From: Reclinomonas americana ATCC 50394
Lineage: Eukaryota
Assembly: GCA_048213135.1 (NCBI GenBank)
Contig: PS015245.1
Span: 84,472-113,372, forward strand
Reading direction: 5' to 3'
DNA length: 28,901 nt
This document shows positions 1 to 25,974 of the stretch, piece by piece. Each line of letters opens with the position of its first letter. Position 1 is the stretch's first letter. The notes below the pieces were generated by a model. The model did not search any database, was not told where the DNA came from, and saw only the letters and a program-made list of their open reading frames with translations. Both the position numbers and the translations under genes were made by a program.

Positions 1-1599
1 AACAAGGTGTAGACGATCGATGCTGCTCTCGTGAACCTGCGCTGCTTGACAATGGTGGGATCACCGCCGTCGAGGATCACGTAGCCGAGATTGTACTGCA
101 CAGGGTGACTGAGTACGCATTGCTCAGAGAGAGAGACAGGGTTCGTGAATCCGCACCTGCAGATTGTAATTCTTCGGGTTCGGGTCGGACCATCTGCGGG
201 GCAGGGAGTGAGCACGGGCAGGTGACACAGTAGTATGTCCCTCGCGTCACGTAACTGGCGCGCCGAGTTGTACAGGAAGAGATAATCGCCTGCGAATCAA
301 CCGGGGGTTAGGAACGTATGCGACAAGAAATGAAGCCTCAAACATTCACACCATTGCTGAGGCGCATAGGCGCAGGGCCGCTCTCCACCAGCGCCGAGTC
401 GAATGAGTCGCTTCGCGGCGCGATCAAGACGTGGCCAGTGTTGCTGTGCACGTGCTTCCGTGTCAGAGAAACCACACCAGATATTGCTCATACACCGGCG
501 GTGAGTGCTCACTTGTACGACTTGTAGTCGGTGGTGGTCGCCACCTGGATGCTCGTGTCGCCCCAGAACAACAGACCGCCGTTGGACTGCATCAGCAGCG
601 CCGCTGTACGTCGAAGGGACGAGCTCAGTCAGCAAGCAAAATCTCAAGACACCAGACAGATGCACAAACCAGACTTGGACCAGCCGCCATTGGGGAACAC
701 CAGACCCTCGAACGTCCACGGCTTCGATGTGCAACAGAAGAAGAGTCAAGGCACCACAAAGGAGAAGCAACAAGCGCATGAGGGAAGGAGGGGAACAGAG
801 GATATGGATCGGTGGCCGTCGCCAGCGCCAGTCGCGCAAAAAGACCGCCGTTGCCGTCGTTCACCACACTCGTGAAGAAGCAGTAGTACTTGCCGTCGTT
901 GGGGTTGTACACCTTCACGACACCACCATCAGTCACGAGCATCGCTGTGCACTTGACAAGGCACAAGACACGCAACCACTCGCGGATCCTCGGCACCGCC
1001 CGGCTGAAAGTCATTCGGACCCAGCACGACATCTTGCGCGCGTGTGGAACGACACGATCAGAGAGCACACAAAGACAGACAACAACGCACACCCCGTTGT
1101 CGCAACTGCTTCGCGACACTCGCTCATAAGACAGATCATTGGGGTCACTCGTGCGCACATACACAATGCTCGACGGTGTCACATCGTATGGCGAATGCTC
1201 GTTCTGTGTGAGGTTCTGCACGCGCACCAGCAGCGCATCGCCCAAGATCGCATCCTGCACAGTGATCGCAAGTGAACGAGGTGTCGGAGAAAAGCACAAT
1301 GCACACAAGAATGCACACACCTCCAGCAGCGCCACGTTGTAGTTGTACTGGTAGTCTGTGTGTGTGCGAGGGTTGAGCGAGTGACTTGCACGTGTGTGTA
1401 TGTGAGAGAGAGAGTGTGTGCATGCACCGCTGTTGGTGTGATCAATCACGGGTTGTGTTGACAGTCGCTTGAGTGTGACTTGTGGAGTGCCAGCGACAGA
1501 GGAAGAAGCGGAGGTGGGACCGCGCAGCAGAGGCGTCTCCATGGCTGCCACGACAAGCGCCAGTGCAATGCAGGCGACAACAAGACCGACTGTGCGCAT
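1..1599 (-). CDS. Secreted glycoside hydrolase family 130 / DUF377-type glycosidase (beta-mannosidase or mannoside phosphorylase-like), multi-exon, 3' end outside window
   Basis: ATG at 1599 with a signal-peptide-like start (MRTVGLVVACIALALVVAA). Manual splicing of about 10 introns gives GH130-type motifs: YNYNVAL, GAEDPRVVYNP..YYCFFT, WTFEGLVFPNGGWSKSA, LLFWGDTSI, FDSALVESGPAPMRLSNGDYLFLYNS, YNLGYVILDGGDPTIV. Confidence 0.8.
729..805 (-). other. U12-type (minor spliceosome) AT-AC intron, 77 nt
   Basis: On the minus strand the 5' end is ATATCCTC, a branch-point-like GCCTTGAC lies at 752-745 (A about 17 nt from the 3' end), and the 3' end is TTGCAC. Removing it joins ATATDP to SKPWTFEGLVFP in frame. 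Confidence 0.85.
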
Positions 1600-1673
1600 C
1601 TCCACTTTTGCAAGATCCGAACACGACGACAAGAAGGACAACCAAGGGCGGGGCGTTCACTCCTTCGCCGTCG

Positions 1674-4600
1674 TCAGTCGAGCTTCTGGGGCTGTGGCTC
1701 CTCCTTGTCTGAGGATAGCCTTTGTAATTGTGAAACGCAGCCGCCAAGAAGCGCAATGTACATGCCACCGCACGTGACGTGCAGGCTGGCCTTCAGTTCG
1801 AACCAGCAGGCGATGAAGAGGGCGCAGGAGAGCATTGCGTGCTCCGTGTGCCTCACGTGAGTCCCTGCATCGACGTGCAAGGGTGAGATTACTGGATGGG
1901 CAAGTGGCGTGCGAGAGACGCAACATGTGGCGGATGCGAGAAGGAGCCACACAATAATGGCTGCCGACGTCGACTCCATGATGCTGCCGTAGCCGGCAAA
2001 GGCCGAGGGCACGGCAAAGACGCCGCACAGGAACAGGAGATACGTCAGCTGCTCTGGACGCTTGTTGGGCAAGCTGCACAGCGGAGTATAAAGGGCACTG
2101 GCGGCCAGAAGGCTCCACATGGGGTGAAGCCACCAGAGCGCGACGAGCGTCACCGCACTGCAGACGAGAATGATCGACGACGGCGGTCGTCTGATCCACC
2201 TGTGCATAGCATCACCATGAGTACGTACACCACTTGTGATTTTCTTCGCCCATATGGCTCACCGAGTGAGCAGCTGCAGCAACCAAAACAGAGGCAGGAG
2301 GAGCGCCACATGCAACGCCAAGGCCGACGACACGGCCACGCCGGCCACCACCAAGGCCGCCAGCGGTTCCCGACTGCCGAACTCGTCCACGGTCGGCAGC
2401 AACGCGCAGACAACAGCCAGCGTGGCGACAAGTGACGACGATGGCAAGCGACCGTCAAAGAGAGTGCCGAAAAGGGCCAACAATGCCAGGCACTCAAACA
2501 CGTGCGCGAATGCCTGCATCAGTAGCTCACGCGACGAGTGCCACCAATCCACACCCATCTCCACCTACAGCATCCCACTCATGGTGAGGGAACAACAACT
2601 GCTGCAAAGGAGCTGCAAGCATTCCCACCGTCAGGTCACAACCGGGAGCGGAAATCAACGAGGCCCGGCATGTTCCGGGCCCTGGCGCCGTCCAGTAGCG
2701 CGGACGATGCGGGTTCTCACTCATGACCATCCACTGCCCGACCGCCACCGCATTCCACACGTGGTCGTCGGCTCCATCGCACTCCACACTTAGTGTCATG
2801 GCACGATGTGCCGTCATGTCGGCAGCCGGATCCGCCGGCATCTCGTCGTCAAATAATTGGGGTGGCGGCTCCAGATGCAGTGATCCGCACTGTGTGGCAT
2901 CTGCGCTATCGCCGACCACCACGCGAAAGGCGGGCACAAAGAGTGTCGTGGCCAGACCAGTGCGCTCAAATGTAAAATGGCGGATGGAGGACAACTCTGA
3001 GTGCAGGAGTGAGTGAGGCGAGGCAACAAAGCACCAAGCTCCTCCATCACCACCACTCACCCCTGTTTGGCCGCAAGCGCGCCTCGAAATGCGTGCGCGC
3101 CACATCATTGGCGAGTGTCGCCGGCACCTCCACAATCAACTGCGCACCGCCTTCCACCACGGGCGACACGTTGACGACGCCAAACAGCGTAGAATGCAAC
3201 GAGTCGCGTGCACCCGTCGATGGCAGCATGCCGGCTGCATGCAGTCGCTGCCGTCGCTCCGCAGACGGCGGAGGCGGAGCGTCCCACAATGGCATCACAG
3301 ATGACATGGGCTGCGACAGCGTGAGCGAACTGCAATCAGAGAACCAAATCCACCAGGCCTCACCATCCGCAGCATGTCGCCGCCGCTACTTACCGGCCAC
3401 GGACTGCGCAGATCCACAGACAGTTGCGGATTGTACTCGTTGAATTCGCGACGATAGGCGCTCGAGGTGTGAACCTCCAGCCACGGTCCACTGTTGTTGC
3501 ACAACAGTCAGCCCCACAATCTCCCTCCCTCCCTCTCTTTCTCACTCACCAGTGAGTCACATTCAGTGAGAATGCCAAGGGAACGGTGGCGGCGACGGAG
3601 GACTCGTCGGTCTCGAATCGCCACTGCGGCGTGCCCATGCGCACCCATCGGAACTCGCACTCGGTGGGATGCGCCGGGTGCGACAAGGGCATCATTCCGC
3701 GACTCCACAGACCGGGATTCAGTGGGATGCCATGGTTGGCGGCGGCCACCGACGCCAGTGAAACGCCACGCAAACTGTCGGTGGCGATCTTGGCCAGCCA
3801 CTCCACGTGCGTCACGCCAGTGTAGCCCTGCATGTCGTACAGCATGCGCGACAGCGTCGACACGATTTCCTTGCACCACACCAGGCACTGCGCACCAACG
3901 TCAGCAATTCATCGAGAGGAAGCAAGAGACGCGCCATCACTGACCCTGTGATCAGTTGGCATGCGGACGCCGCGCATCTGTGGCGACGACAGCGTCACGT
4001 GGCCGACATTGCTTGAGCGCCAGTCGACCTCAAAGTCACCAAAGCCACCACTCACGGCAATCACCAGCGGGTAGCTCGTTTCTCTGCATCGGCAAGTGAG
4101 TCGACAACTGGGTTCAGGGCATCGTCATCAGTCAAACGCACTTGGCAGCAATGCTGGCCAGCGACGGTAACGGCTGCAGATCGCCGTACAGATTCCACAT
4201 GGCGGCGCCAAGTGGCAACACGCTCCACCTGGTGCGTTCGTTCGGGAGCACACGCCACGTGGATGGTGAGAGACCTCACACCAGAAGTCAATTACAGGAA
4301 ACACACTCACCGGTGTGGAGTTCCCAACGTGATGAGCACCCGTACCGCAGCACGCACGGGACTATCGTGCAAGCGTTGCAGGGCCAAGCGTGCCACCAGG
4401 CCTCCCATGGAGTGCCCGACGAGATAGATCGGTCGTCCACCATGCACATGGTACAAGTACTGCAGGCACTCGACCTGCCGCCCCGCAAGCGTGTGAGTGA
4501 GCTCGTAACAGCAAAAAGGGTAAGGGAGAGACGGGGGGATGCCGACAGAACTGCATGCGCCACGTGGCTGTCGAGCACGGCACCGTGGATCGCGGAGAAC

Positions 4601-5256
4601 ACGTGTGCAAAGTCGATGGTGTACCACAACAGCGATGCACCGTTCTTGGCGGTCCACCCATCCTGTGCATCGCCACGCCACGCGAGCGTCAGCAACCAAC
4701 AGCAGAGTCGCGCGCGAGACATACAACTCTCGTCGCACCTTGGCACGGTGGCGCCACACGCGATCGGTCTCACTGCCGAGACTGCGGACCTGCTTGAAAT
4801 GACCAGCGTTGCCGTGAATGAACAAGACTGGATCGGAATCGCGTCGAAGCTGTGCAGCGAGGGCATGAGTACGTGCACCGCAGAAAGAGAGAGGCACCAT
4901 CACAGTGAATGCACCTCGGTGAGTGTCTCCGAGGAGGTGGTCTGCTGTTGCGGTCGATAGATCCACAGGCGGTAGTTGCGACGAGACAGCAATGCAGCCG
5001 CTTCCGCAGAATCACCACCCTCGCTGAGCCCACACTCGATGTAGTCTTGCCACATGTATGTCATGGTGCAGTCGGGTTGCAGACTGGCCTGTCGCGAGTG
5101 AGTTGCGTGTGCAAGACAAGTCGTGCATGACGACAAGAGACGCAACACTGTCGATGTGGGCGTCTGCACGTACACCACCCACAAGGCGACGAGAGAGAGG
5201 AACACTGCAGGCAGCATCAGCAGCACCAGGAACAGCCGCGACACGAGTCGCGGCAT
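1674..5256 (-). CDS. PGAP1: GPI inositol-deacylase (PGAP1/Bst1 family, alpha/beta-hydrolase), multi-exon
   Basis: N-terminal TM helix followed by CTMTYM, VLFIHGNAGHFKQVRSLGS, YTIDF, the nucleophile elbow LVGHSMGGLVAR, LITLGTPH, IAVSGGFGDFEV (catalytic Asp) and DHRCLVWC (catalytic His). The C-terminus has several hydrophobic helices and ends ...PQPQKLD* at 1674. GT-AG introns keep phase. Confidence 0.9.
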
Positions 5257-5346
5257 GGTTGCTTGCCCCTCCTCTCAGTGCCGGCCCACAAAACAAAGGA
5301 CGATTTTGATCGCGTCCTCGACTTCACACACTTCATTCTCCAACCA

Positions 5347-8300
5347 TCACCACTCGGGCGATGCGGAACGAGCTCGCATGCTTTGCACGCGTGGCTTGAT
5401 TGTCTCCCAGTCCGGCGGCAACGGTGTCGGTCGCGGCGTCTTGTCGAGCACGAACGGTGGACGGGCCTTCGCTCGTGCCTTGACGTGCGACGGCGACGCC
5501 TTGTAGCTCGTCTTTGGCAGTCGATCGGGGTGCCGATGCTGCTCAGGCTCCGGCTCCGGCAGCGGCAAGTCCTGCGCCACCACCAGCTTGTGGTACCGGT
5601 CGCGCAGATCCTTGCGCATCTCGGCAATCTCCTTTAGCATGCGCTCCTTTTGTTCGCGCGACTTGGGCAGGAAGAACTTCCACGCGTCCGGATTGGCCAG
5701 CATGAGCTCTGCGGAGTAGAGAGTAAGCACCGTCGTCTCTCTCTGCGCGTGTCAACAAGGGGCGATGAGTCGCAACTGCGCTGAATCTCGGCCGCCGACG
5801 TGTTCTTCGTGTCGAAGCTCGACAGCATCTCCTCGTACGACAACTCTTGCGACGGCTCGTTGGCCTTCTTGCCTTGCTGCACGTTGCGCAGGGCCATGGA
5901 CATGGCCAGCACCTGCACAGCCACCATGGTAAGCACACTGACAGCAACAATGCAGAGAGGAGACTAACTGAAAAACGCACATCAGGATGCGGCAAGTCAC
6001 CCGAGGCAATCTTCTTCCACCTCTCCAGCTCCTCATTCAGCCTCCTGTTACACGAATTAGCTGTCGGCAACACCAGCACGGTGACCACAGAACCTGTCAC
6101 TCACTTGCGTTCCTGCAACCACTCAATCTCGTCACGGCGCAAGCGCTCCAGCTCGGCCGGATTCACCGCCTTCAGCTTCTCCTCCAACTCGGCCGCCTTC
6201 ACCTGCGCCTTCTCCTGCATCGCTTGCAACTTGGCCAATTCGGTTTCACGCTGTCGACGCGTGGCCTCGACTTCANNNNNNNNNNNNNNNNNNNNNNNNN
6301 NNNNNNNNNNNNNNNNNNNNNNNNNNNNNNNNNNNNNNNNNNNNNNNNNNNNNNNNNNNNNNNNNNNNNNNNNNNNNNNNNNNNNNNNNNNNNNNNNNNN
6401 NNNNNNNNNNNNNNNNACACACACATGAGTGAGGAACTGCCTGTGAAGACTTGTGGAAACGGCAAAACACTCACCGTTCGCTGCTTCATCTTCAGTGAGC
6501 GGTACTCCAAATCGTGGAGCACAAACCCGTACAACTTGTGCACGTAGTCGTCGACCTTGGACGCCTCTGCCACACTGGCACGCGTAATCACTTGGCCATC
6601 ACGCGCCTCTCGCGCCGTCTGCGGTCGCTGTGGCAGTTTCCCAGTCGACTCGGAGCTGGGCGTCACCAAGTCAGTACGAAAGCAAATGTGTCGAGCAAAG
6701 ACATGAAAGCGAGTGCTCTCACCGACGGCGGAACGATCCCGGGCGAGCTGACATGGGTCGGCGTCCAGATGGTGGCGCGGGCGTTTGCAGTCGACCTGCA
6801 CACACCACACAAGGTGGTCAGCACATGATAGCAACACATTCTTAACAAATCGCCAGTGTAACTGAGAATGGATGCCGAGGAGCGACGAAGTGTGGATGCC
6901 GGTGGAGGAGCCTTGCCGCGCGCAGCAGTGGCGGCAGCCGGCTCGTTCCCGTGTTCGCTGGAGCTGCACGACCAGTTCTCCTCGCCGCCGCCACTTCTGC
7001 TGTCATCATCGTCGTCGCCCATTTCCAAACCGCTGCTGTCGTGCGTCAAGTCTGCCGCCTGCGGCTCGCCCGTCGCCCGACGACGGAGTGGCGATGGTGG
7101 CGGCACAGGTGACCGTCGGAACTGCTCCCACTTGGCCTTGAGGACCTGCATGCGTGCGCTTGCCGGCTCCTGATCGTGCACCACTGCCGTGGCCATGGTG
7201 TCGGCGGCAGTCGTGCTGGTGGCCGACGCCGACGACGGCTCAACGACCGACTTGTCGTCGTGTGCGGTGGCCGGACGGGGCGCCGAGGCCGGTCGCCGGA
7301 GCGCAGCACGACGACGAGACGATGCAGGCGCGGCGGCCGACTGCGGACNNNNNNNNNNNNNNNNNNNNACATCGGTGACACGGTGGAGAACGACGACGAG
7401 GTTGGCGAGAGGCCGAATGAACGTGCGGCCGACTGCGACATGCGCGTCAGCAGACTGCTGAGCGCGCGGCCCTTGGTGACGTGCACTGGCGTCGTCGGTT
7501 CAGGCGACGTATCCAGCGCCGATATTGTTGGTCTCCGTGTCATGCCTCCGCCCGTTGTTGTTGTCGTCGTTCCTGCCGTTGCCGTTGCTGCGGCTGTCGC
7601 CATCGCTGTTGTAGTGGTGGTCTTGCTGGTCTTGCTGGTCTTGCCGGTCGCAACGGCCGCAGCAGACCGGCCGTGCGTCTCGCTCGCAGCGGGCGGCTTG
7701 GGTTGCACCGGCGGCATTGGTGGCGCAGACAGCGGCCGCTCGCGCAGACCCTGCGCAAGAGCCGACAGTGCCGGCGCTCGGGTGGTCGGATCAATGGCCC
7801 TGGGTGGCGTCGCCAGTGGCTCGCGCCACGTGCGTCGAGTCCGCGAGGGAACCGAGGTGATGGGCGCGGTGGTGGGCGACGGTGGATGCGAGCTGGCCAA
7901 CTCAATCTCCCACGCAGCCGGCGCTTTGCGAGAGAATTGTGTGCTGGAGCGCAATCGCGTCCCCGGCCGAGTGCTGTCCACACGCGGCCCAACACTGCCG
8001 AGTGTACTCGCTGCGCGTCGGCGACCTCCAGCGGGCGGTGATCCACTGGGAGGAGCACTTGGTTCGACCTGCGGAGGCAGTTCTCCAGTCGGCGGTGAGA
8101 GTGCTGTTGTCGACGCCTGCCAGTGCACAGGCACGCTGCGGCTGTTCTCGAAGCTGTCGCTCTCCGGAACCACCACCGACAGGCCACTGCGGTGCCATGG
8201 GGCACCCTCGGCGGCTGGCGTCGGTCGCCGACCAGCACTGGGTGGTTTGGCGGAGGGTGGTCGCACGCCGCCACGACCCTCCACGGCCACCGTGTTGTCA

Positions 8301-10620
8301 CTCAGCTGCGAATCCACTGGCTCGCCAAAGCTCGTCTCGCTGTCGTCGTCGTGAATCATCTCCAGTGTTGCACTGTCGGCGGGCGATGCGGCCAGGTCTC
8401 GCATAGCGGCAGCGGCCGCGGCGACTGTTGTGCTCATGTCCTGCCCCGAGTTCCGCAGCAAGTGTCGCACAATCGGTGTCGAATCATTCGACAGCGCGTC
8501 ATCGCCACCGCCAGACTCCGAGTCCGTATACTCCTCCTCCGACAGCTCCTCGCCCTCGACACCGGCAAACGACTCTCTCCGAGGTGTCTCCTTCTTTGGT
8601 GGCGCCGGCGGCTTCTCCATGCCACCGCCGAGTGGATGCAGATGCGAGTAGTTGTGATAGTCGTTGATGATGCGCGAGTACACACGCTCGGCGTGCGCAC
8701 GCACTCGGGCCGTAAACTGCAAATCGGCCACGTGCCGATCTTGCCGCACTAGAATCGCGGTGCTGCCCTTGGCCGCACGCGGTTGCCGCAAGTGCGACCG
8801 CGCCGTGGCCACCACCTCGCGAGCACGACTTGTCGTCGAGTTGCCTCGCGCGCTGCGCTTCGGTTTCGGTGCCGACGGTGGTCTCGGTGTGGTTCCCCGT
8901 GCGGAAGCCGGTGCCGTGGCCGAGGTGACATCGCCATTTGACGCAGTCTGCGCAGAGTCGTGAGGGTGAGCAGCAATTCATGACAGGAAACAGGTGCCGA
9001 TGCGCACCTTGGATCGCGACGACAATTGCTGCTGTGTGGAACTGCGCGCCGACGCCGGTCGCCCCAGATTCGAGTAGTTGTGAACAAAGTGCGGCAGCTT
9101 GATCTCCATGCGCCGCTCCTGTGTGCGCTGGTGCGCCCACTTGTCGATCTGCGTCGGATTGACGCCGATCTGAATCGGAAAATCGGCCAGCACCGACATG
9201 GCGTCGTCCGACGATGAGACGCCTCCAGGACTGCTGACGGGCGACGGCGGAGCGTGCAGGCCGTCGCGTCGCATGCGAGCGTGCAAATCGCGGTTCGCTT
9301 GCGCCGTCACGGCACGAGTGCGATTGACGACCATGGCGAAACTGGCACTGCGCGCCAGCATGCCGTCGGACGCTTCCTCACCACCACTCCCGTGCTGTTG
9401 TTCCTCGTCGGCGTCACCCCACGTGATGCTGAGTGGTGTCAGCGGAGTGGTGATGCTCATGGCATCGGTGGGTTGCGACGGTGCTGGTGGATCACTGTCC
9501 AGGTAGTGAAACGTGGAGTTGGTGTAGCCGTGCAGCTGCGACATGGTGCGAATGAGTGGCCGACCCGGATTGCTGTCGTCGATCCACGCAAAATCCTGAA
9601 TCGAGGTCAAGTAGATCTGTGCATCGCAGGCATCGATCAGCACACTGGCATCGATCGCTTACTCAGTCACTCAAAGTTGCCCAACCTTGCCATCGAACGC
9701 GGCGACAAACTCGCACTCCAATCGCACCAGATCCACATCATGGGCGCGTCGCACAAAGTCAACAATGCGCAGCGTCTGTGACCGCAAGTCGACAAACGTG
9801 GCATCGTCGTCACGCATGGGCTCCCATCGCGGCACGCCACCTCGTCGCTTGTTACCCACGCCACTTCCGAGCCCGCCCGTCACATCCCACCACTCCTCCA
9901 CCTCGGTCTTCTCGCCACGCACTCGAAAGTACTGATCGTCAATCTCCTCACGCTCATACGCCGTCACATACCGATGCACTCCACTCACATATCGCTGCAC
10001 CGTCAGCGACAACACCGTATTCTCTGGTCGCCGCGATCCCATCAGATGCGAGTGCTCCAGCCCATCAATCAGCTCATGAAACGGTTCACCAAGCAGCAGA
10101 CTCGGTCGGCAGTGATCTAACACACCGCGTGGCACATGAGACACAGAGGTAAAGACACTGAAACGACCTGCGCACGCACGCACCCTTGCGAAGAGCGGCA
10201 ATGAGTTTCCGCGAATTTCCCGACTGTGTCAACGCCTGCTTCACAAACTCCCTGTTGACGCTGGAGACCACCAGCGCAGACGCGCGATGACGCATCACAT
10301 GACCACGCTGCTTGCACACGCAGATCAATACACGATCATAAAGAGAGGCAATATTAACACACGCAACTTTCGAGGTAAAGAACCAGGCCACCAGCTGCCC
10401 ATCGCGAAACACCGCCGTGTCTGGAACGTTGATCGACAGACGCGCGTCCCCGTTCTGCTCTCATACACGTACATGGAGGCAAAGAGTGAGCAGAGAGAGA
10501 GAGAGAGAAGAGTAAAGAGAAGAAAGAAAGCGCAACGTTGACGAGGAGAAAGGCAAAGTTGGTCGAGTCAGCGCGTGCCACTGGATCGTGCGAGTCCAGT
10601 CGCGGAGGACGCACACTCAT
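5347..10620 (-). CDS. Large uncharacterised multi-exon protein: ATP-grasp-like N-terminal domain, long Ser/Pro/Arg-rich disordered middle, C-terminal coiled coil; possibly cilium/basal-body associated
   Basis: ATG at 10620 (MSVRPPRLD). Spliced exons give NVPDTAVFRDGQLVAWFFTSK...LTVQRYV...LRIVDFVRRAHDVDLVRLECEFVAAFDGKIYLTSIQDF. Long exons correspond to ORFs 8978-9643, 7046-8815 and 6663-7196. Coiled coil ETELAKLQAMQEKAQVKAAELEEKLK; stop after SPEW at 5347. The model crosses two N-gaps, so a single gene is inferred rather than shown. Confidence 0.65.
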
Positions 10621-10765
10621 TCCGGTGTGTCTGTCTCGCACGCGTCGAGTGTGTCCGTAGTCGTTGATTGGGACAGTTCCGGCACGATGACGTCACTTTG
10701 GTCACGCACACAAACACTTCGAAGCGCGCGTGGGAGAGAGCGCACGCACTCAAAACACAGCGGCC
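10621..10765. promoter_or_regulatory. Putative 145-bp bidirectional promoter with a CRE-like palindrome and an inverted CCAAT box
   Basis: Lies between head-to-head ATGs at 10620(-) and 10766(+). TGACGTCA at 10688-10695 sits nearly centrally and ATTGG is at 10667-10671. Confidence 0.5.
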
Positions 10766-13700
10766 ATGTCGGTCTTCTTCCGTTTCTTCGCAGGTGAGTG
10801 GGTTGATCGCTGGAGGGAGAGAGTGTGAGGAAAGTGTGTGTGGTGACATGTTCGCGCGCGCGCTCTGCAGAGACGGTGGCGGATCAGGTGCCGGTGTCGT
10901 CCAGTCACATCTCGGTGGGCGAGTTGAAGCGGTTGGTGATGGAGAAGCGGCGCATGAGTCGCTCCACGGACTTTGACTTGCAGTTTACACATGCGGAGAC
11001 TGGTGAAGGTGTGCCTCATCTTTGTGTGCGTGCAAGAGAGAGCGGGCTGTGCGAGGCGTGCTGTGTGCGTGTGCTAGTGTGTGTGCGCGTGGCGAGTGTG
11101 TGTGAGAAGCATGTCGGTCATCTCACTTTTTTGGTGTGTGGTGCAATGCAGAGTTTGACCGCGATACGTCACTGATTCCTCGCAACATCTGCGTGGTGGT
11201 GAAGCGTGTTCCGCGTACCAGGCCGGTTGGTCGTGGCTCGATGATTCTCACAGCGTTGCGTTGCTGCTCCTCTTCTTGATGAGGGGATGATTGACAATTG
11301 ACGTTACAACTAACACGCACACAGCTCGTCGACTGGACCCAAGGAGTCGTCGTCGTCTGCGGCGGCCGCGGCAGCAGCAGCAGCATCTGGAGCCACGCAC
11401 GGAGGGATGGGGGGAGGAGGAGGAGGACAGGCGTCTGCCACCATGGGCTCGTCGAGTGTGTCAGCAGCAACGGGTGGCGGTGGTGCATCCAGTGGTGCTG
11501 GTACCGCGGGCGCCACCACGACGGTGCTGGCTGCGGCGCCGGTTGCGACGGCGGCAAGTACGATTTGGTCGGCGCCCGGGCAGCCGCAAGTGCAGCTGAC
11601 GGAGGATGAGATGATGCGAATGATGAGCAGGGAGCACAGTCAGCGGCATCGAACGTTGCGTTGTTTTTCTGTTCGTGGTCCCGGAGGTGAGGGGAATGGG
11701 CTGCAGTGCTCACGTGCCGTTTGTTGTACACAGGATGGTTCGTGAGGCGCGCACACAAATGAAAAAGAGCATGCAACAGCTGCGCACAGAGCGAGCACCG
11801 AGAAAGCAAAACACCAAAGGTGTGCCCACCAAGTATCTGAGCAAGACCGGCGACGGCACCGACAATGTGCAAATGAAGCCGATTGCCGACGAGTTGCGTC
11901 TCCCCGCCTTTTGTTGTGTGTCTCCTTCGTTGTTGTTGTTGACCGGCTGCACAGATCTCAGTTCACCAGCATGCTGAAGAAGCTGGCGGCGTCCGTGGGC
12001 GATGCCTCGTTCTTGTGCCCGCTGAGTCACAAGTGGATGGTGGATCCGGTGCGCACAGCATGCTGCAATCACGCCTACAATCGACCTGGTGAGTCGCGCC
12101 GTGCAGCGCGAGAGATAATGAATGGCGGGTGCTTTGTTTGTGGCTGACTGTGAACTCGCCAGCCATTGTGGAGTACTTGAACACGCACGACGGTCGGTGC
12201 CCAGAGTGTGCGTCCGTGATCGACCCGGTTGCCGACCTCAAGCAATACGTGCAGCTGCGAGATCAAGTCCGGAAAGCACGAGAGAAGATTGCGCAAGGTG
12301 AGAGTGGCTGAAGAGAGAGAGAGATGGATAGAGGAGGAGAAGTAGAGAAGTGAGTGAGTTGAGTGAGTGGTAGTACGTGGCTGGGCCGGCGAACGACGGG
12401 TGGCGATGATAATGGTGCCGCGCATGGACCGCAAGTGCTGCGAAACTAGGCTGTCTCGTGATCTTGGCGCGCATGTGGGTGAAGAACGATGGATCGATCG
12501 CACATGCCGATGGATGGTGAGTGTACGAGGTCGCCAAGGGATGCCATGGAAGAGGCAGCTCGTGTGGGCACACGCAAGGGCATGCAGCTCGTGAATAAAA
12601 TACGGAGGCGTGCATCGATGGAGTGCTGCCTGCTGTTGTTGCCCTTGCGTGCGCCGGCCGGGTTGTTTTTTCTTCTGTGGTTTCCCTTGGCGCCTCGTCA
12701 CTCGTCCCAGACGCTCTCGGAGGGTCGGACCGGCGCTGGCTTCTTGGGTTTTAGAGCTAGTTTTCTGCAGTCAGACGAGAGACAGGGTGAGAGGCAGCGA
12801 TGGTGGTGGTGGTGGTGGTGGCTGTGATGGAGGAGGAGGAAGAAAATAACAGTTGCACGTGGTGCATCGGCTGCTTCTCTTGATGTGTTTTCTCGGGCGC
12901 TGTTGCTCTGTGTTCAACTGCATGCATGTGTTTGTGTGTATTGGGTTCGTGTGTGATGATTGCCGGTGGCCCGGCTGTGGCGGTTCCTCCTCTTGCATCG
13001 CAGCATCGACATTTTTCTTTCGCCGTAGACAGGGACAGTGAGGGAAAAGAGCTTGGTGGTGGTGGTTTTTTTGTTCTGGCAGGCGTGTTTATTGTTCGTC
13101 CACATTTTGCAGAGGGTCGACCCGATCCAGTTGAAGAGGCGGAGCGAGCAGCGGCTGCCGAAGAGGAGGCTCGACGGCAGCTGGCCGCAGCTGAGGCTGA
13201 GGAGGACGAAGAGGAAGACGAGGATGACGAAGAAGAAGATCATCAGGACGGCGCGTCGCACGGCAGCGGAGAGGCTGCGGCCGAGAGAACCGGCACACCG
13301 CCGCAGCAGGAGCAGCAGCAAAACGGTGATGCGGCAGCACCGATTGCTGGCGGCGAACCGCTGAAGAGTGTCGGTGACGTCGCGGCGGAGAACACACCGA
13401 CGCCGACACCGCAGCCGGTGGTGGTGGTGGACGGCCTGCTGGAGGCACCAACGGCGAAACCGCAGCGCCTACAGTCGCTCGACGATGCGACGCGTTCGGC
13501 CATGGCGATGCCGCTCCGCGCAGAACTGAAACATGTGGGGCCACCGACGCTGACACCAGGCCAGCCGCTGATGACTCCTGCGATGTACATGATGCCTAAC
13601 GGCGCACCGATGGTGTCACCCTATGCTCCGCATGTTGCCATGCAGCCGTATCGTGGTTTCGCACCTCCTCCACCCCATCACCCATCGCTTTACCATGCAC

Positions 13701-15472
13701 CCATGCCGCCCTACGGACACATGCCTCCTCACTATTACGGCGGCGCTGCTGGTGGAGGTGGACGCTATCCGGGTCCCGGAGGCCCTCCGTTCATGCCACC
13801 GCCGATGCACGGCGGGCAACCGTCCTCGTCGTCGTCATCTGTCGGAGGCAGAGGAGGAGGTCGGCACCGATCCCCGTCACCAGTCGATCGCAATCGCTAC
13901 CACAATCGGCATTCGTCGCGTCGTTCGAGATCCAGGTCGCGGTCGCCAGCACACGACACGAGGCACCCTCGTCGGCGCGAGTCGAGTCGCGAGCGCCGCT
14001 CCAGCCGCGATCGGGACAGTGATCGCCGTCGGCGCAGCCGTTCTCGCGAAGATCGCCGCCACAGCAGCAAGGATCGGGACAGCACTGGCGGCGCGAAGGC
14101 TGAACGCGACAAGGAGACCGAAAAGAATGTGGAGGCCTCGACACCGACGGCTGGTGACGATAGTGTGGCGGGCGATACCAAGCCGTCGGCGAGCGTCGTC
14201 GAGGCGGCCATGGCGGTGGCCGAGGGCTGGAAGAAGGACAAGCCGTCGAGTGGTGAGCGCGATCGCTCGTCGCGGAAACGAGCGCCGGAAGGCGAGGCAG
14301 CGGTGGAGGGTGGCGCCGAAGAGGACGAGCGTGCACGGAAACGTGCGAGGCGATCACGGTCACCGAGGCGCAGCAGTGATGGCGATGACCGTTCCAGGCG
14401 GCGACGTGAGGAGGCGGAGAAGGAGACGGAGGCACCAAAGGACGCCGAACGCGATGACCGTTCCAAGCGGCGGCGTGAGGAGGCGGAGAAGGAGGCGTCG
14501 AAAGACGTCGCGACGCAGCGCAGTGGCGAGGGCGATGAAGGTCGCAGTGGCGGTGATCGTTCCAAGCGACGACGTGAGGAGGTGGAGAAGGAGAAGGAGG
14601 CGTCGTCCACAAAGGACGCCACCGAGACGGACGACACACGGCCAACGAAGCGACAGCGCACGGAGAGTGGCGCAAGCAGCAAGAAGGAGGAGCACAAGTC
14701 GTCGCGCGACAGCGGTGCCTCGGAGGAGAGTCGCAGGCGGTCGAGTCGCGACGAGTCGGTGAAGGAGTTGTCGTCGTCGTCGTCGCAGCCTTCTCGGGAA
14801 CGTGAGCGGGATCGCGGAGAAGACAAGGGCAAGAGCACTTCGTCCTCCTCCTCCTCTCGACATGGAGGCGACAGGGAACGCAAGCCCGAAGGCAGCAGCA
14901 GCAGCAGCAGCACGACCAAGGAGCGATCGCACAAGGAGGCGACGGCGGAGAAGTCCAGCAGCAATCGCGAACGCAAGGAGCGTCGCGACTCGGACAGTGC
15001 TACCACCACTACTACCGCTTCATCGTCGTCGTCCTCTTCCCGCCGACGTGAGTCCACGGACAAGGAGGGTGAACGCAAGGAGCGGAGACGCGAGTCGACA
15101 GACAAGGAGGGTGAGCGGAAGAAGCAAGAGTCCACGGACAAGGAGGGTGAGCGGAAGGAGCGGAAGCACGGATCCACGGAGAAGGAGGGTGAGCGTAAGG
15201 AGCGGAGACACGAGTCCACGGACAAGGAGGGTGAGCGGAAGGAGCGGAAGCACGAGTCCACGGACAAGGAGGGTGAGCGGAAGGAGCGGAGACACGAGTC
15301 GAGCTCCGACCGCCGTGATCGCGACAAGGACGGCAGCAGCGATCGACGACGACACGAATCTGGATCGAGTCGCAGCAGCAGGGATAAGGAACGCCGTAGC
15401 AGCAAGAGCGACGGCGAGCCGCCACCAACAGCGATGGAGGTCGATCGAGGTGCGGCCGCTGCGGCTGTGTAG
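10766..15472 (+). CDS. RBBP6: RBBP6/Mpe1-like pre-mRNA 3'-processing factor / E3 ligase: DWNN ubiquitin-like domain, degenerate RING, Pro-rich and RS-rich regions, charged repeats
   Basis: Spliced N-terminus MSVFFRFFAETVADQVPVSSSHISVGELKRLVMEKRRMSRSTDFDLQFTHAETGEEFDRDTSLIPRNICVVVKRVP matches DWNN. TKGVPTKYL resembles the conserved TGIPRSF segment. RING-like FLCPLSHKWMVDPVRTACCNHAYNRPAIVEYLNTHDGRCPEC. Last exon 13113-15472 has a Pro/Tyr/Met-rich stretch and SRSRSRSP. Confidence 0.85.
12594..12599 (+). promoter_or_regulatory. Candidate intronic polyadenylation signal AATAAA in the RBBP6 long intron
   Basis: Perfect AATAAA followed about 30-75 nt downstream by GT/T-rich sequence (ctgttgtt...gggttgtttttt). 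An in-frame stop lies at 12309-12311 if the 12298 donor is read through. Confidence 0.4.
15050..15300 (+). repeat. Coding tandem repeat, six units of about 42 nt (ESTDKEGERKER[RK]H)
   Basis: The unit gagtccacggacaaggagggtgagcggaaggagcggaRRcac recurs six times; one unit is shortened to 36 nt. Confidence 0.9.
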
Positions 15473-15490
15473 AATGATAATTTACAGTAG

Positions 15491-15496
15491 AATAAA
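15491..15496 (+). terminator. Polyadenylation signal AATAAA of the RBBP6-like gene
   Basis: AATAAA 18 nt after the TAG stop, in an AT-rich patch. Confidence 0.6.
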
Positions 15497-15753
15497 AACA
15501 CAACAAGAACAACGTATCCGGGGGAGGGCCGTCGGTGGGTACAGGTGTGTTGTGATTGGCTTCACCTTCCGTGTGCGTGCACACACTCCCTCCGAAGGAG
15601 GGCGAGCAGCGAGAGAGAGAGAGCGCCACACGAAACGCTCGTTTGCTCACCCTCGCTGCAGCAGGCACAGAGACACGTCGTGCAGTAAGGTGAGTCAGCG
15701 AGAGCACTGTCGCTGCGAAGGCATACGTTTATGGAGTTCTTCACGCTGCAGAA

Positions 15754-16686
15754 ATGTCTTTAACTTCTGGTCATGGCGCCGGCACACCGAGTACTTCTGG
15801 GGGCTCGGAGAGTGCTTGTGATCAAGTATCGCCCATGCTTGTGACAGATGATGCACTCGTGGATCCTGCGAGAGGTGGGATCCGGACTGCGCATTACTGC
15901 TATTGCGGTCGGTCACGAACCCACTGATCATCTCTGCGTGCAGTCAGCCTCGATGATCTGCTGGCGCTCGATACGCGTGAGGGAAACGAGGAGAACAAGC
16001 GGCGCGTGCAGATCCTGTCCGACAGACTGGAGAGCTTGTCGCTGGCTGATCCACGGCCAAGTCCTGCAGGTGCTGTACACGATACATGGACCTGGCTCGT
16101 GCAAATGTCCACTGTTGTGCCTCGTATTCCTGATTTGCATTCCCAAGCAGAGGCTGTAAGACGCGCCCATCTTCTGCTTGTCTGCGTCGGAAAAATCGAC
16201 GGATCTCTGGCTGCTCCCGCGCTTGAACCCGAGCCGGACGATGACGGCTGGTAACCATAACCGATGAGGTGGTCGATGGTTGGACCTGGTCCAAGCTGCA
16301 AGAGATGGCTGCGCTGCAGCTGCGCACTGGCGTTTAGTGTTGGTGAATGAATTCGAATTTGCTGGTATTGCATGCTGCTGCCTGCGTTTCATTCCCGCGG
16401 CAATAACAACTTTACTGATCCAACAAGCAGCACTGCTGCATGCACATGACGATCACCATCTTGAGTATCCCGTGAAGATCGCAGTTCTCGACTTGTTCGG
16501 AGCTCCGAGAGCGAACACGCACACACAAGTAACCTGCTGCTGCCTCAAGACTGGTGTCTGTGTTGATGTTTTGGATACGGTTGGACTTGGTCATCAAGAC
16601 AGTTGTTGCTTGTATGTTGGTGAATGAATTTGTTGTGTTGTTGAGCACCAGAGGCGCAGCGCAGCGCTGCGATGAGAAAAGCTTAA
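15754..16686 (+). CDS. Small uncharacterised multi-exon protein with an intron in the 5' UTR; 3' end uncertain
   Basis: An intron GTGAGT(15690)..TGCAG(15751) precedes ATG 15754. Phase-compatible GT-AG introns give MSLTSGHGAG...DPARVSLDDLLALDTREGNEENKRRVQILSDRLESLSLADPRPSPAEAVRRAHLLLVCVGKIDG...CCALAFSVALLHAHDDHHLEYPVKIAVLDLFGAP. I recognise no family. Confidence 0.45.
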
Positions 16687-17309
16687 GTCGACGTCGAAAT
16701 GTCCAATGCTGGCGTTTGCAGGTATGATCGCCTGCATCTCGACTTGCTCACTGTTTCCATGAAGCCTCAGTTGTTGGTGCGCCGTCAAGATGGTGGTCAG
16801 AATCCACCGGTGTTGCTGGTTGGTTTGTGCTTGTTGCCTGCGCGCGGGAAATAATGTACATTTGCATGCTTGTCCAGCACGCTTCGTGACGAGTTCCCCT
16901 TTCGGCGGTCCTGGAGCGCACGCCACACATTTTCGCCGCTCCCGGTGAAACACCACCTCCATCCCACAATTCCGAGCGGCAAACGACTACGCGGAGGTTG
17001 CGGAGAGAATCACAATCCGGACAACGGTATTTGTTTTCACCGGAAATGGCGTGCACGGGAACATCCATCCACCGGCGCCGCGGCAAAAACGACGGAACGC
17101 AACGCACACTGCACACCCCCCAGCCAACACCCACCGTTGCAGCAACAGACCACACAATCGAAAAAAATGTATTGAGTACTCCACCGAATTGGAAGGAGAT
17201 CATGAAACGGCAGCGCACGGTTCATCATTGTTTGCGCGCATCTCCGCGCAGCGGTGAATAAACACGGCCAGTGCACACACAGAGAACCACCACGCGAAAG
17301 AGACTGAGG

Positions 17310-17571
17310 ATGACAACACGGTTACCTCTTGTACACGCCATTGTGTACTCTGACGGCGACCGACCTCAACAAGTCGATCAAGACGACGACGACGATGGAG
17401 AAGAAGACGAAGAAGACGATGATGATGAGGAGAACGATGAGACAAGAGCACTGGTTGCTGCGTGCGAGCGTGCCATTACACAGTGTCTCAACACAGACGA
17501 TGAGAGTGAGACAGCGGCGGCGGCAGAGGCCAAGGTCGCACATGCGGTGTCGTGTATTCATCAAGGTGCGA

Positions 17572-17622
<51 letters not shown>

Positions 17623-20040
17623 ACACTCGCACACACTCACACTCACACTCCTCTGTCTGTCTGTTCTTGTCCACAGCCAGCACGCATCTGACATCGGATC
17701 TGTTGTCGACTCTGTTGCCGTGGCTATTGCCGTCGCTGGAGCTGAGCACGCACAGTGAGCCTTCGTCGGTGGCCATTCGCCTGCTGGAGGCACTGCTCAC
17801 TGGTGAGTAAGAGGCAGAGACGGACGAGACACATGGCTGTATCATGATCTTGTTCTTCTCCTTCTCGTCCTCTGTCTTGTTCCTCTTCTCCCTGTCCCCC
17901 TCCACGTCCTCCTTCTCCTCCTCCCCCCCTCTTTCTCCCTGTCCCCCTCCACCTCTTCCTTCTCTGTCTTGTCCTTTTCCTTCCTGTTGTTCTCGTTTCG
18001 TTTGTTCTGTTCCTTTGTCTCCCTGTGCTCCTCGCCCTTTTTCCCCTTCTCCCATATCTCTTCTCCTCTTCTCCTCCTTCTCCCCCCTTCTCCTTGTCCT
18101 CCCTTCTCACGATTTCTGGACGTGCGCGCGCACGCTATACAGCAAGCGAGGTCTCTCGCACACTCTTCCATCGATACGGAGGCACCAGCAAGCTGGTGGC
18201 ACGACTGGCACACGATGAGAGCGATGTGGTGGCACTGATGCTGCTGGCGGTGTGCACGCGGCCGCATCGATTGTCGCTGGATCAGACGCGGCTGCTGGTG
18301 GCCAGTGGGGGCGAATTGGCGACCGTGAGTCGCGTATGTGATGCGCACGCGCTGTGTTTGCGACGGTTGACGACGCTGGAGAATGTGCTGGAGACCACGC
18401 ATGGTGAGTGACCTTTAGTGTGTGTGTGTGAGGAACGCTTTGGTTTAGATGACCAATAACAACAGTGCGTTCAGATCGAGTACGCCGCTGGCTGCAACGA
18501 TATCTGGTGATCCGGACAGAGTTTCTGCAGCAGTGCACCATCACCTTCTTCACCGCCGATCGCGAAGTGTGTTTGCGATTGCTGCTGTTGCTGCTGCGCG
18601 TCACATTCAGTTGCGCCTCGCTGCATGTTTTTCGCTGCCTTCCTCTTTCGCTGTTTGTTGACTTGGCGATGAGCAGAAAACACTCGGGCCTGCCTGGCTC
18701 TCATCTCCCAGGCCTCGCTGCTGGATGTGTTGGCGCAGCAACTGGAGATACTGCAGACTGGAGCGGGTGGTTCGTGCGCGTTTGCCAACAGCACCATCTT
18801 GAGATTGTTCGAGCGTCTGCGCCTCGAGTTGCAAAGAGTACCTGCACGGTGCGTGTGGAGCTGTACGCAAGGCGGTTATGTGCGCGTTGCTAAATAGCAG
18901 TGATTTTCGGTCTCACAGAGCGAGACTGCTGACCGGTTGCTCGCCGCGGACCACCGAGCTGCTGCTGTCGACGACGTGCCTCCTGCCAGTCATTCCCACC
19001 GTCAGTTGCGTCTCACCTGTTCTTGCTGTCCGCATTTCTGCTGCTGACCTCTTGTCTGCAAAGACGGACTGCTCGGCACCTCCAGCTCTTCGCACGACAG
19101 CGACGATGTGGGTGTGGATGTTGACGGCGGCTACCTCGTGTTGGACAAGGACGCCTACGATCCCTTCCCCGTGGACGCTGGTGAGTACATTGAGCGATTT
19201 TGTCTTTATTCTCTCTCCCCCCTGGCTCACGCTGCCCCCTCCCACTCGCAGAGGTCATGGCGCAGAGTGCCGGCACCTCGGCGTCTCCCAAGCGCAAGCC
19301 ATCCATTCTGTCGCCGTCGTCGTCCATGCCATCGATCGTCGCTGCGGCCACCGCCGCAGTGATGCCGCCGTCGTCGATCGGCACCGATACCGCGTTCACG
19401 GTGCGCAGGAGAAGGAAGATGCGGAAATTCCGCTCCGACACTGCCGCCTCGCGCCGTGTCAGCGAGCCATGTGCGTAGCAGCTGCTGCTGTGCTCTTATC
19501 TTGATTCGCCACTCATTTCGCTGACGTGCAGTGCAAGACGACGACTCGGACGAGAGACGCGCAATACCCTACGTCGATTCGCTGTCCGCCGGCGGTGGTG
19601 GTGGTGGCATCGGTGGCGGTGGTGGACGCACCGTCACGACCGTGAGCACCGCCTGCTCATCGTGCGAACAGGATTCGTGCCTGGCCACCGTGCCGTCGTC
19701 GCCGGTGGTGGCGCACGGCCTGTACGTCATCAGCTCGCGCACCGAGTTGCTGCTGGTGGCGCACAACTCGCCGCACGCCGTCGCCCAGCTCATGGCGTAT
19801 GTGCAAGATGGCGGCGACGATCCCGATCTGTGTCGCGCCGTGCGGGAGATCTACGTGTCGTTGGAGAAGGCCGGCGTGGCGCCCCGCAGCTGGTCGTCGG
19901 TGTTCCAGTTGGCGTGCAGTCACGCGCGCGCCGGTCCATGCTCGCAGGTCGGTTGGGCGGCGGTGTCGCATTTCTTGCGCTCGACCATGCCGCTGAGCAT
20001 GTTTGACTCGGCGTCGCCCACCGCCGATGCTCACAAGTAG
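17310..20040 (+). CDS. Uncharacterised multi-exon protein, acidic N-terminus and Leu-rich helical (ARM/HEAT-like) segments
   Basis: ATG at 17310 (MTTRLPLVHAIV), a D/E tract, then exons LLSTLLPWLLPSLEL, LFHRYGGTSKLVARL, ASLLDVLAQQLEIL and DGGYLVLDKDAYDPF, and a final exon ending DAHK* at 20040. Splice phases are consistent. Confidence 0.6.
17573..17648 (+). repeat. (CA)n microsatellite in intron 1 of the 17310-20040 gene
   Basis: Direct CA run degenerating into CACT units. Confidence 0.95.
17848..18107 (+). repeat. Low-complexity polypyrimidine (T/C) tract inside a 340-nt intron (17803-18142)
   Basis: About 260 nt almost devoid of A, made of TTC/TCC/TGTC units. Confidence 0.85.
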
Positions 20041-20256: not shown

Positions 20257-22995
<2,739 letters not shown>

Positions 22996-23137
22996 AACAC
23001 CATCTTTGCCTCAAGTTGTTGTTTCGGAGAAGGGTGCGGCGCGGAGCTGAACAGATCCATGTCGACGTCGACACCAAAGGCAATGGGTGAGGAACCTCCT
23101 GACTGACGGGACACCACGGCAGCATTCGTTGTGACGG

Positions 23138-23834
23138 ATGGGTTTCGAAGACGCACACGTTGGAGACAGGGGCGGAGAAGGCAGTGGATCTGCTCCTCCC
23201 CTTCCTCCTCCTCCGCCTGCTGCTGCTTCCGAAGATGAGATTGTTCTCGAGCAGCAAGTGATGCGACTCTCTAGCGACAGTGAGGAACAATTCGTGTTCT
23301 GTGTGGTGCGCGCTGTGCATCGTCGCCCTCCATCTGAGGAGGGAGAGAAAGAGGCACAGCCACCGCGTTTGTGGATGGAGCAAGTCGCGCAAGAGTCGCG
23401 AGTGGTGGCGGAGGAATACGTGTGCCCAGTGTGTATGGTGAGTGTTTCTCTCTCTCTCTCTCTCTCTCTNNNNNNNNNNNNNNNNNNNNNNNNNNNNNNN
23501 NNNNNNNNNNNNNNNNNNNNNNNNNNNNNNNNNNNNNNNNNNNNNNNNNNNNNNNNNNNNNNNNNNNNNNNNNNNNNNNNNNNNNNNNNNNNNNNNNNNN
23601 NNNNNNNNNNNNNNNNNNNNNNNNNNNNNNNNNNNNNNNNNNNNNNNNNNNNNNNNNNNNNNNNNNNNNNNNNNNNNNNNNNNNNNNNNNNNNNNNNNNN
23701 NNNNNNNNNNNNNNNNNNCCGTCCGGTTCGGTACGGTGGTAGGTACGTACGGTACGACGGACGACGACGGTACGGACGGTACGGTGGTGGGTCGGAGGAG
23801 GTACGTAGTCGTCGTCGTCGTGTGTGTGTGTGTC

Positions 23835-23889
<55 letters not shown>

Positions 23890-25870: not shown

Positions 25871-25974
25871 AGCACCTCGTTTCGGAGAAGGGTGCTGCAC
25901 GTCGTGAAGGCAGATGAGTGACGGGAGACAGGACATCATGAGGTCTATCATGGCCTATCATGATAAGTTTGTGA

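Follow-up and report, generated by a model that had tools for sequence, protein, structure and literature searches.

In a 28,901-nucleotide (nt) stretch of the nuclear assembly of Reclinomonas americana ATCC 50394 (GenBank GCA_048213135.1, contig PS015245.1, positions 84,472 to 113,372 of the forward strand), the hexamer GTTGCG, in most cases with T next to it and frequently with TCTC, is probably a real and recurrent donor of U2-type GT-AG introns. Judged from the gene models, this class of 5′ splice sites appears to account for about 12 of the 72 introns in the window, or about one in six. The window, by which we mean the whole 28.9-kb stretch, contains N gaps, has a G+C content of 50-63% when measured per 2-kb window, and carries closely packed genes rich in introns of about 55-85 nt. 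An initial annotation, made from the letters alone, had listed ten introns that start with this hexamer; GTTGCG was present at all ten coordinates and on the strand claimed for it. Two more GTTGCG donors that were absent from that list were found at 5776 (minus strand) and at 18610 (plus strand). Among the resulting 12 sites, 8 were well supported, 2 were probable and 2 were ambiguous.

Introns were inferred in two ways. A reference set of 31 introns was defined without using the donor sequence, and consisted of 24 introns from three tandem paralogous genes (G7-G9) and 7 from the gene G5. The paralogue introns were taken from an alignment of G7-G9, in which eight common positions were diverged, indel-rich blocks between conserved exons, and their removal gave complete open frames; the G5 model with seven introns gave an open frame of 1,128 codons. 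The acceptors of the reference introns were CAG in 30/31 and TAG in 1/31. In the other genes, introns were read frame by frame with the donor sequence visible during curation, which was thus not blind. The final set held 71 GT donors, 64 of which were supported by frame or homology. A parser that required only GT at the donor, and that scored coding content, intron content, length and acceptor, was used as the donor-blind control. It placed GTTGCG at the start of 7 of 70 predicted introns (976, 10536, 5776, 11255, 11655, 11893 and 18610); since it mis-set several of the paralogue donors, it served only as a control. Codon-only parsers were dropped for their poor gene models.

No window-wide enrichment of GTTGCG was detected, as the 28 copies on both strands compared with 26.5 ± 4.7 in shuffled sequences, and therefore only the placement of the hexamer matters. 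Within the gene spans there were 1,946 sense-strand GT sites, 17 of which were GTTGCG, and 12 of these 17 copies stood at curated donors, where about 0.5 would be expected. Fisher's test of the hexamer against donor status gave 1.2e-14 with all 71 GT donors and 1.7e-8 with the 64 supported donors only, 8 of which carry the hexamer. The initial annotation had made its proposal depend on a genome-wide excess over what intron base composition predicts, and within this window an excess was observed, with 12 intron starts against 0.47 predicted among 72. No internal copy of GTTGCG was found inside any of the 57 introns checked. The share of sense copies that are used (12/17) was comparable to that of GTGAGT (23/33). 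The five unused sense copies were all exonic and were followed by A in 5/5, and T at +7 was found in 8/12 used copies versus 0/5 exonic copies.

Sequence profile and exon context of the donors

The position of the conserved G differed between donors with T at +3 and all others, in agreement with the proposal of the initial annotation that this G moves from +5 to +6. Among the 25 donors with T at +3, G was found at +6 in 18, in 13 cases together with T at +7, and at +5 in 7. By comparison, the 46 ordinary donors, which have another base at +3, carried G at +5 in 43 and G at +6 in 2; G at +3 and T at +6 were present in 41 and 35 of them. The G at +4, the G at +6 and the T at +7 (8/12) of the GTTGCG class thus match positions +3, +5 and +6 of ordinary donors.

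The exon side of the class was displaced as well. An exon-final G preceded 1/12 GTTGCG donors versus 51/59 other donors (p = 3e-7), and 1/8 when only the supported GTTGCG sites were counted (p = 5e-5). The -1 profile of the class (A6 C3 G1 T2) resembled the ordinary -2 profile (A18 C10 G6 T12), as is predicted if the whole helix is shifted by one base, which favors a shifted register over a bulge at +3. The exon ended in CA at 4/12 class sites, and likewise at two related donors, 4551 and 255. Further into the intron, the class showed C (7/12), T (9/12) and C (8/12) at +8, +9 and +10, and the first 10-mer was identical at four sites (11893, 19005, 1924 and 5146). C at +5 was invariant in the class, and C at the matching position +4 was tolerated in 10/46 ordinary donors.

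These donors belong to a diverse repertoire, as the 71 GT donors comprise 25 hexamers, and the most frequent ordinary forms were GTGAGT (23) and GTGCGN (8, including 4 GTGCGT). The idea that GTTGCGT is simply the local GTGCGT with one T inserted proved too simple. GTGAGT dominates the ordinary donors, its shifted counterpart GTTGAG was used at 0 of 4 sense copies, and the class has a preference of its own at +8 to +10.

Two other donors with T at +3 showed a related layout. In G3, a PGAP1-like lipase gene (2530-5256, minus strand), the intron at 4475..4551 starts with GTTCTGT after an exon ending in CA, so that G falls at +6 and T at +7. The spliced G3 product aligned without gaps to four PGAP1 homologues across the junction at 4551, with E-values of about 1e-28 and, for the fourth, 9e-10, whereas the single open frame gave 3e-5. 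A candidate donor at 4563 was rejected, as it deleted four aligned residues and scored 109/108/102 versus 113/109/106 bits against three homologues; for the fourth homologue the order was reversed, with 51.2 versus 49.7 bits. In G1, a gene for a secreted GH130-like protein (1-1599, minus strand), the intron at 194..255 starts with GTTACGT after an exon ending in CA and likewise places G at +6 and T at +7; a frame change is needed at donor 255, and the spliced product aligned there with the homologue P0008. The paralogue donors AG|GTTGTGT and AG|GTTCTGT keep the exon-final G.

Otherwise the 12 class introns looked like ordinary ones. They all had GT...AG ends, with acceptors CAG in 9 and AAG in 3, and the frames closed in the G5, G3 and G1 models. 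Their median length was 65.5 nt versus 67 nt in 27 other introns. A branch-like YTNAY motif, similar to that of GTGAGT introns, was located 11-32 nt from the 3′ end in 12/12.

Support for individual donors and the genes around them

For each site the acceptor was held fixed and other in-frame GTs were sought from -60 to +45 bases around the donor. With respect to the ten introns of the initial annotation, those at 11255, 11655, 11893 and 10536 were upheld by frame and those at 1106 and 976 by homology, whereas 10367 and 1924 were unproven and 5146 and 19005 were ambiguous.

The DWNN/RBBP6-like gene G5 (10766-15472, plus strand; Pfam DWNN) contains three GTTGCG introns, all with CAG acceptors. 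Intron 3 (11255..11324, 70 nt; GTTGCG followed by T, exon end GC) joins the DWNN exon to the next exon, has no rival in-frame GT in the interval searched, and carries a branch-like motif 11 nt before its 3′ end. For intron 4 (11655..11733, 79 nt; GTTGCG followed by T, exon end AC), the donor at 11655 is the sole in-frame GT for its acceptor. Intron 5 (11893..11954, 62 nt; GTTGCG followed by TCTC, exon end GA) has a single in-frame rival GT, which lies 60 nt upstream within the exon; its donor is fixed by frame and yields the IADE|SQF junction that had been read from the sequence before. A frame change is also needed at intron 4 of G6 (17310-20040, plus strand), located at 18610..18676 (67 nt; GTTGCG, exon end CA, acceptor CAG), where 18610 is the only in-frame GT in the interval. 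The large gene G4 (5347-10620, minus strand), to which no family was assigned, begins with a CT-rich intron at 10455..10536 (82 nt; GTTGCG, exon end AC, acceptor CAG) that provides a frame change after the start-codon exon and has in-frame rivals at 10542 and 10581. The last intron of G4 (5709..5776, 68 nt; GTTGCG, exon end CA, acceptor CAG) likewise needs a frame change and has no in-frame rival GT in the interval; its donor was chosen by the codon-only parsers as well as by the GT-only parser.

Two donors in G1 were fixed by homology, using three GH130 relatives obtained by an exhaustive HMMER search (P0005, P0007 and P0008, which match Pfam Glyco_hydro_130). These are the donors of intron 3 (1033..1106, minus strand, 74 nt; GTTGCG, exon end CA, acceptor AAG) and intron 4 (913..976, minus strand, 64 nt; GTTGCG followed by T, exon end TG, acceptor AAG). 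With both introns removed, G1 scored 143/108/91.7 bits against the three homologues, and its alignment was free of gaps across two conserved stretches, VVLxP and EDPRV-x-Y. Removing neither intron gave 112/79.7/57.0 bits, and models of G1 that lack the introns were rejected. The donor at 979, a GT three bases upstream of 976, was rejected since it introduced one gap and gave 139/103/87.4 bits, as was the donor at 1092 with a TTTCAG acceptor, which lost a conserved stretch and gave 135/97.4/87.0 bits. The EDPRV|VY junction proposed earlier is right, because donor 976 aligns without gaps and gives the best scores, and EDPRV-x-Y is present in 3/3 homologues. The three AAG acceptors at 913 and 1033 (minus strand) and 19063 (plus strand) all belong to GTTGCG introns. 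Those at 913 and 1033 are supported by homology, and that at 19063 belongs to the ambiguous intron at 19005; their occurrence may be due to chance or be peculiar to G1.

At the remaining four sites the donor was less firmly placed. The putative intron 2 of G4 (10308..10367, minus strand, 60 nt; GTTGCG followed by T, exon end AA, acceptor CAG), which is 57 nt long with the AAG acceptor chosen in the initial annotation, is T-rich and has a branch-like motif and a CAG acceptor, but it is in frame and free of stops, so the frame is no proof. The same applies to the putative intron of the membrane-protein gene G2 (1674-2561, minus strand) at 1865..1924 (minus strand, 60 nt; GTTGCG followed by TCTC, exon end AT, acceptor CAG), in which the CAG and a branch-like motif are likewise spaced as usual. 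Intron 1 of G3 spans 5084..5146 (minus strand, 63 nt) with the hexamer donor and the second CAG acceptor; its rival, 5089-5148 (60 nt), uses a GT two bases upstream and the earlier CAG, and both keep the frame. An intron at 5146/5148 is real, because the unspliced form adds 20 residues relative to the homologues, and its donor is not fixed. The reverse complement of the first seven bases of this intron (5102-5107, plus strand) adjoins its branch-like motif, and the start and the inner complement could pair with each other; such an inner complement was seen in this intron and not in the other GTTGCG introns. Intron 6 of G6 (19005..19063, plus strand, 59 nt; GTTGCG followed by TCTC, exon end CA, acceptor AAG) is ambiguous, as the region allows two self-consistent parses, with donors at 18849 and 19005 or at 18853 and 19001.

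Several further features of the window were recorded. The final open frame of G3 and the beginning of G2 overlap at 2530-2561 (minus strand), and G2 could represent a C-terminal membrane portion of the G3 gene, joined to it by an unplaced intron; no region homologous to G2 was found in the four PGAP1 hits. The C-terminal part of the DWNN/RBBP6-like protein includes about seven tandem copies of an E/K/R-rich peptide of about 13 residues (15040-15300, plus strand), which sit within a long Arg/Ser/Glu-rich tail. Between 15480 and 17300 there was no convincing gene on either strand. A 157-codon open frame with a hydrophobic start is present at 16748-17221 (minus strand), and GTTGCG followed by T also occurs at 17103 on the same strand. 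The three tandem TRAF-zinc-finger/TLDc paralogues G7-G9 (20257-28366, plus strand) encode products with TRAF-type zinc fingers, a coiled coil and a TLDc domain; their first intron is packed with microsatellites, (CT)n among them, and in G7 and G8 it also contains N gaps. No useful match came from protein searches that used the final G5 exon or the G1 open frame, nor from metagenome scans with a G4 exon and with P0005. The Atlas offered no more than a weak lead, Oomycota being the most frequent group in its top cluster.

Possible modes of donor recognition

Where the donors sit, which base profile they have and what exon ends precede them are observations; a pairing scheme and its partner RNA are what we infer. 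The class may be read by the normal U1 small nuclear RNA (snRNA) with its helix displaced by one nucleotide, a proposal to which we give an even chance. In such a helix, the first G of the intron would pair with C9 of U1, where the exon-final G normally pairs, T at +3 would pair with A7, G at +4 would form a wobble, and G at +6 and T at +7 would pair with C4 and A3. An exon ending in CA would contribute two further pairs, and cleavage would still take place before GT. Where the exon-final G is retained, as at the paralogue donors AG|GTTGTGT, one T may be bulged instead. Counted by hand against the U1 5′ end given in the excerpt of PMC4856993 used here, with no energies computed, a class site has 2 Watson-Crick pairs and 1 wobble in the canonical register, and 4 Watson-Crick pairs and 1 wobble in the intron plus at most 2 exon pairs in the shifted register. 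The suggestion of the initial annotation that U1 pairing is bulged or shifted therefore holds in part: the exon context and the profile are consistent with a shifted register, whereas a simple bulge at +3 is at odds with an exon-final G in 1/12.

Several observations weigh against a displaced U1 helix, or against the strength of the pattern itself. A pure shift predicts mostly GTTGAGT, yet C at +5 is invariant and GTTGAG was used at 0/4 copies. The class has C/T/C at +8 to +10, where standard U1 pairing explains only T at +9, while ordinary donors prefer G at +7 (25/46). At 5/12 sites the exon ends in C or T at -1 and offers no exon pair in the shifted register. The shifted duplex in humans is weak (-6.5 versus -15.2 kcal/mol for the consensus), and human non-canonical registers together make up about 1-2% of sites, according to the excerpt of PMC4856993. 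Moreover, 4/12 sites are unproven or ambiguous (10367, 1924, 5146 and 19005), the sample is one window, and the donors were curated with their sequence in view.

A dedicated partner (for instance a second U1 variant, another RNA or a protein) might instead match GTTGCGT(CTC) directly, so that two donor codes coexist, which we consider unlikely although worth keeping in view. Here the invariant C at +5, the A-containing counterpart used at 0/4 copies, the preference specific to the class at +8 to +10, the 10-mer common to four sites and the dispensable exon-final G would all be expected, and this explanation stays under consideration because the C at +5, the absence of used GTTGAG and the CTC at +8 to +10 are unexplained by a shift. 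However, no such RNA was found in the window by Rfam, where a scan with E up to 1 gave no snRNA and one chance microRNA-like match, and the one-base-shifted match to the ordinary profile would be a coincidence. In a more specific form, which seems rather unlikely to us, the major spliceosome would use two parallel codes, with GTGAGT read by standard U1 and (C)A|GTTGCGT(CTC) read by a dedicated partner, for example a U1 with a changed 5′ end. It is also conceivable, if improbable, that no special register exists and that, in a lineage with introns of 55-85 nt, donors are loose and are fixed mainly through intron definition or at later steps (U6, U5, Prp8). On this view, which we likewise regard as doubtful, GTTGCG would simply be a weak but tolerated donor whose frequency has mutational or compositional causes. 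The 25 hexamers among 71 donors, the T at +3 in 25/71 and the C at +4 in 10/46 ordinary donors fit such looseness, but composition predicts 0.47 GTTGCG starts rather than 12, usage at 12/17 is as high as that of GTGAGT, and its close association with T at +7 and with the absence of an exon-final G points to specific recognition. A bulge of one T of GTT at +2/+3, with U1 in its normal register, would form as many intron pairs as the shifted register, and bulged registers have been validated in human cells, as described in the excerpt of PMC4856993. It would suit the paralogue donors AG|GTTGTGT and AG|GTTCTGT. Yet a bulge should preserve the exon-final G, because C9 of U1 stays free to pair with it, and this G is present in 1/12 class sites; it was missing in 11/12, and only the related paralogue donors suit canonical pairing of G at -1 with one base looped out. 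We therefore hold a bulge to be quite improbable for the class.

Two further explanations concern the introns rather than their recognition. That the recurrence is an artefact of gene models, with other nearby GTs being used or some introns not being introns, is very unlikely in our judgement: two sites do have a frame-keeping GT 2-4 bases upstream, two are in frame and stop-free, and curation was not blind, but six sites have no in-frame alternatives or only poor ones, two are fixed by homology, including the rejection of 979, and the GT-only parser found 7. It is more unlikely still, to the point of being negligible, that the class consists of divergent U12-type introns or of copies of a mobile introner element. 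U12-type introns likewise lack the exon-final G, and the 10-base start common to four sites could recall a copied element. However, neither the U12 5′ motif (RTATCCTT) nor its branch motif (TCCTTRAC) was found in the 12 class introns, whose branch motifs are those of GTGAGT introns, whereas G1 itself contains a conventional U12-type intron that the class resembles in neither start nor branch site. This AT-AC intron (729..805, minus strand, 77 nt) starts with ATATCCT, and CCTTGAC lies 17 nt ahead of its terminal AC. Splicing it out takes away nine residues that are inserted relative to the homologues and gives 147/116/93.2 versus 143/108/91.7 bits; with these better homologue scores it replaced a GT donor at 771. 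The organism therefore has a standard minor-intron signal and a minor spliceosome. The U12-type reading was rejected, as its motifs are missing from the class and present at 729-805. The introner reading was rejected too: beyond the first 8 bases the class introns had a pairwise identity of 0.512 versus 0.508 among other introns, so a repeated mobile element is unlikely, with no similarity over whole introns.

Relation to known splice-site systems

Human minigene studies have revealed shifted and bulged U1 registers as exceptions. If the pattern extends genome-wide, this organism uses a shifted- or bulged-type donor in about 1 of 6 introns. It would then provide a natural system for the drift of donor recognition under exact cleavage, for how U6 handles a conserved G moved from +5 to +6, and for the co-evolution of snRNA variants and splice-site classes. 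Gene finders trained on a single matrix would misplace or miss GTTGCG introns, and at several places in the window a rival GT 2-4 bases away alters the protein. Full-text searches of an open-access library revealed no GTTGCG-type donor class, which is not proof that none has been published.

Degenerate GTNNGT donors, with variable +3 and +4 and strong G at +5 and T at +6, are found in fungi and many protists, in systems with short introns and CTNAC-like branch sites. The class differs from them in that the G/T pair lies one base further in and the exon-final G is dropped. U12-type introns resemble the class in needing no exon-final G and in having a long conserved 5′ motif, and differ from it in the motif itself, the branch site and the frequency. 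Bulged U1 registers were reportedly described by Roca et al. in 2012, and a shifted (+1) U1 register at atypical human 5′ splice sites is said to have been described by Roca & Krainer in 2009 (Nat Struct Mol Biol).

Tan et al. 2016 (PMC4856993, from an excerpt) also treated U1 registers with bulges or asymmetric loops. Like the class, these registers have a one-base offset between GT and the block formed by G at +5 and T at +6, as well as T at +3. They keep the exon-final G paired, whereas the class has that G in 1/12, and they may apply to the paralogue donors AG|GTTGTGT and AG|GTTCTGT. Closer to the class is the shifted register with an exon end CA, which the same excerpt describes experimentally for human U1, including a 'Shifted +1' oligonucleotide with the CA|GT-N layout seen here (PMC4856993). 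Human shifted (+1) sites share with the class an exon end of CA rather than AG, a dispensable exon-final G, one additional base between GT and the block paired with U1 positions 3-7, and conserved G and T at +6 and +7. As far as the excerpted source goes, the human register comprises a handful of sites, compared with about 12 of 72 introns here. The class is further distinguished from the human shifted sites by its invariant C at +5 and by the preference for CTC after the paired block.

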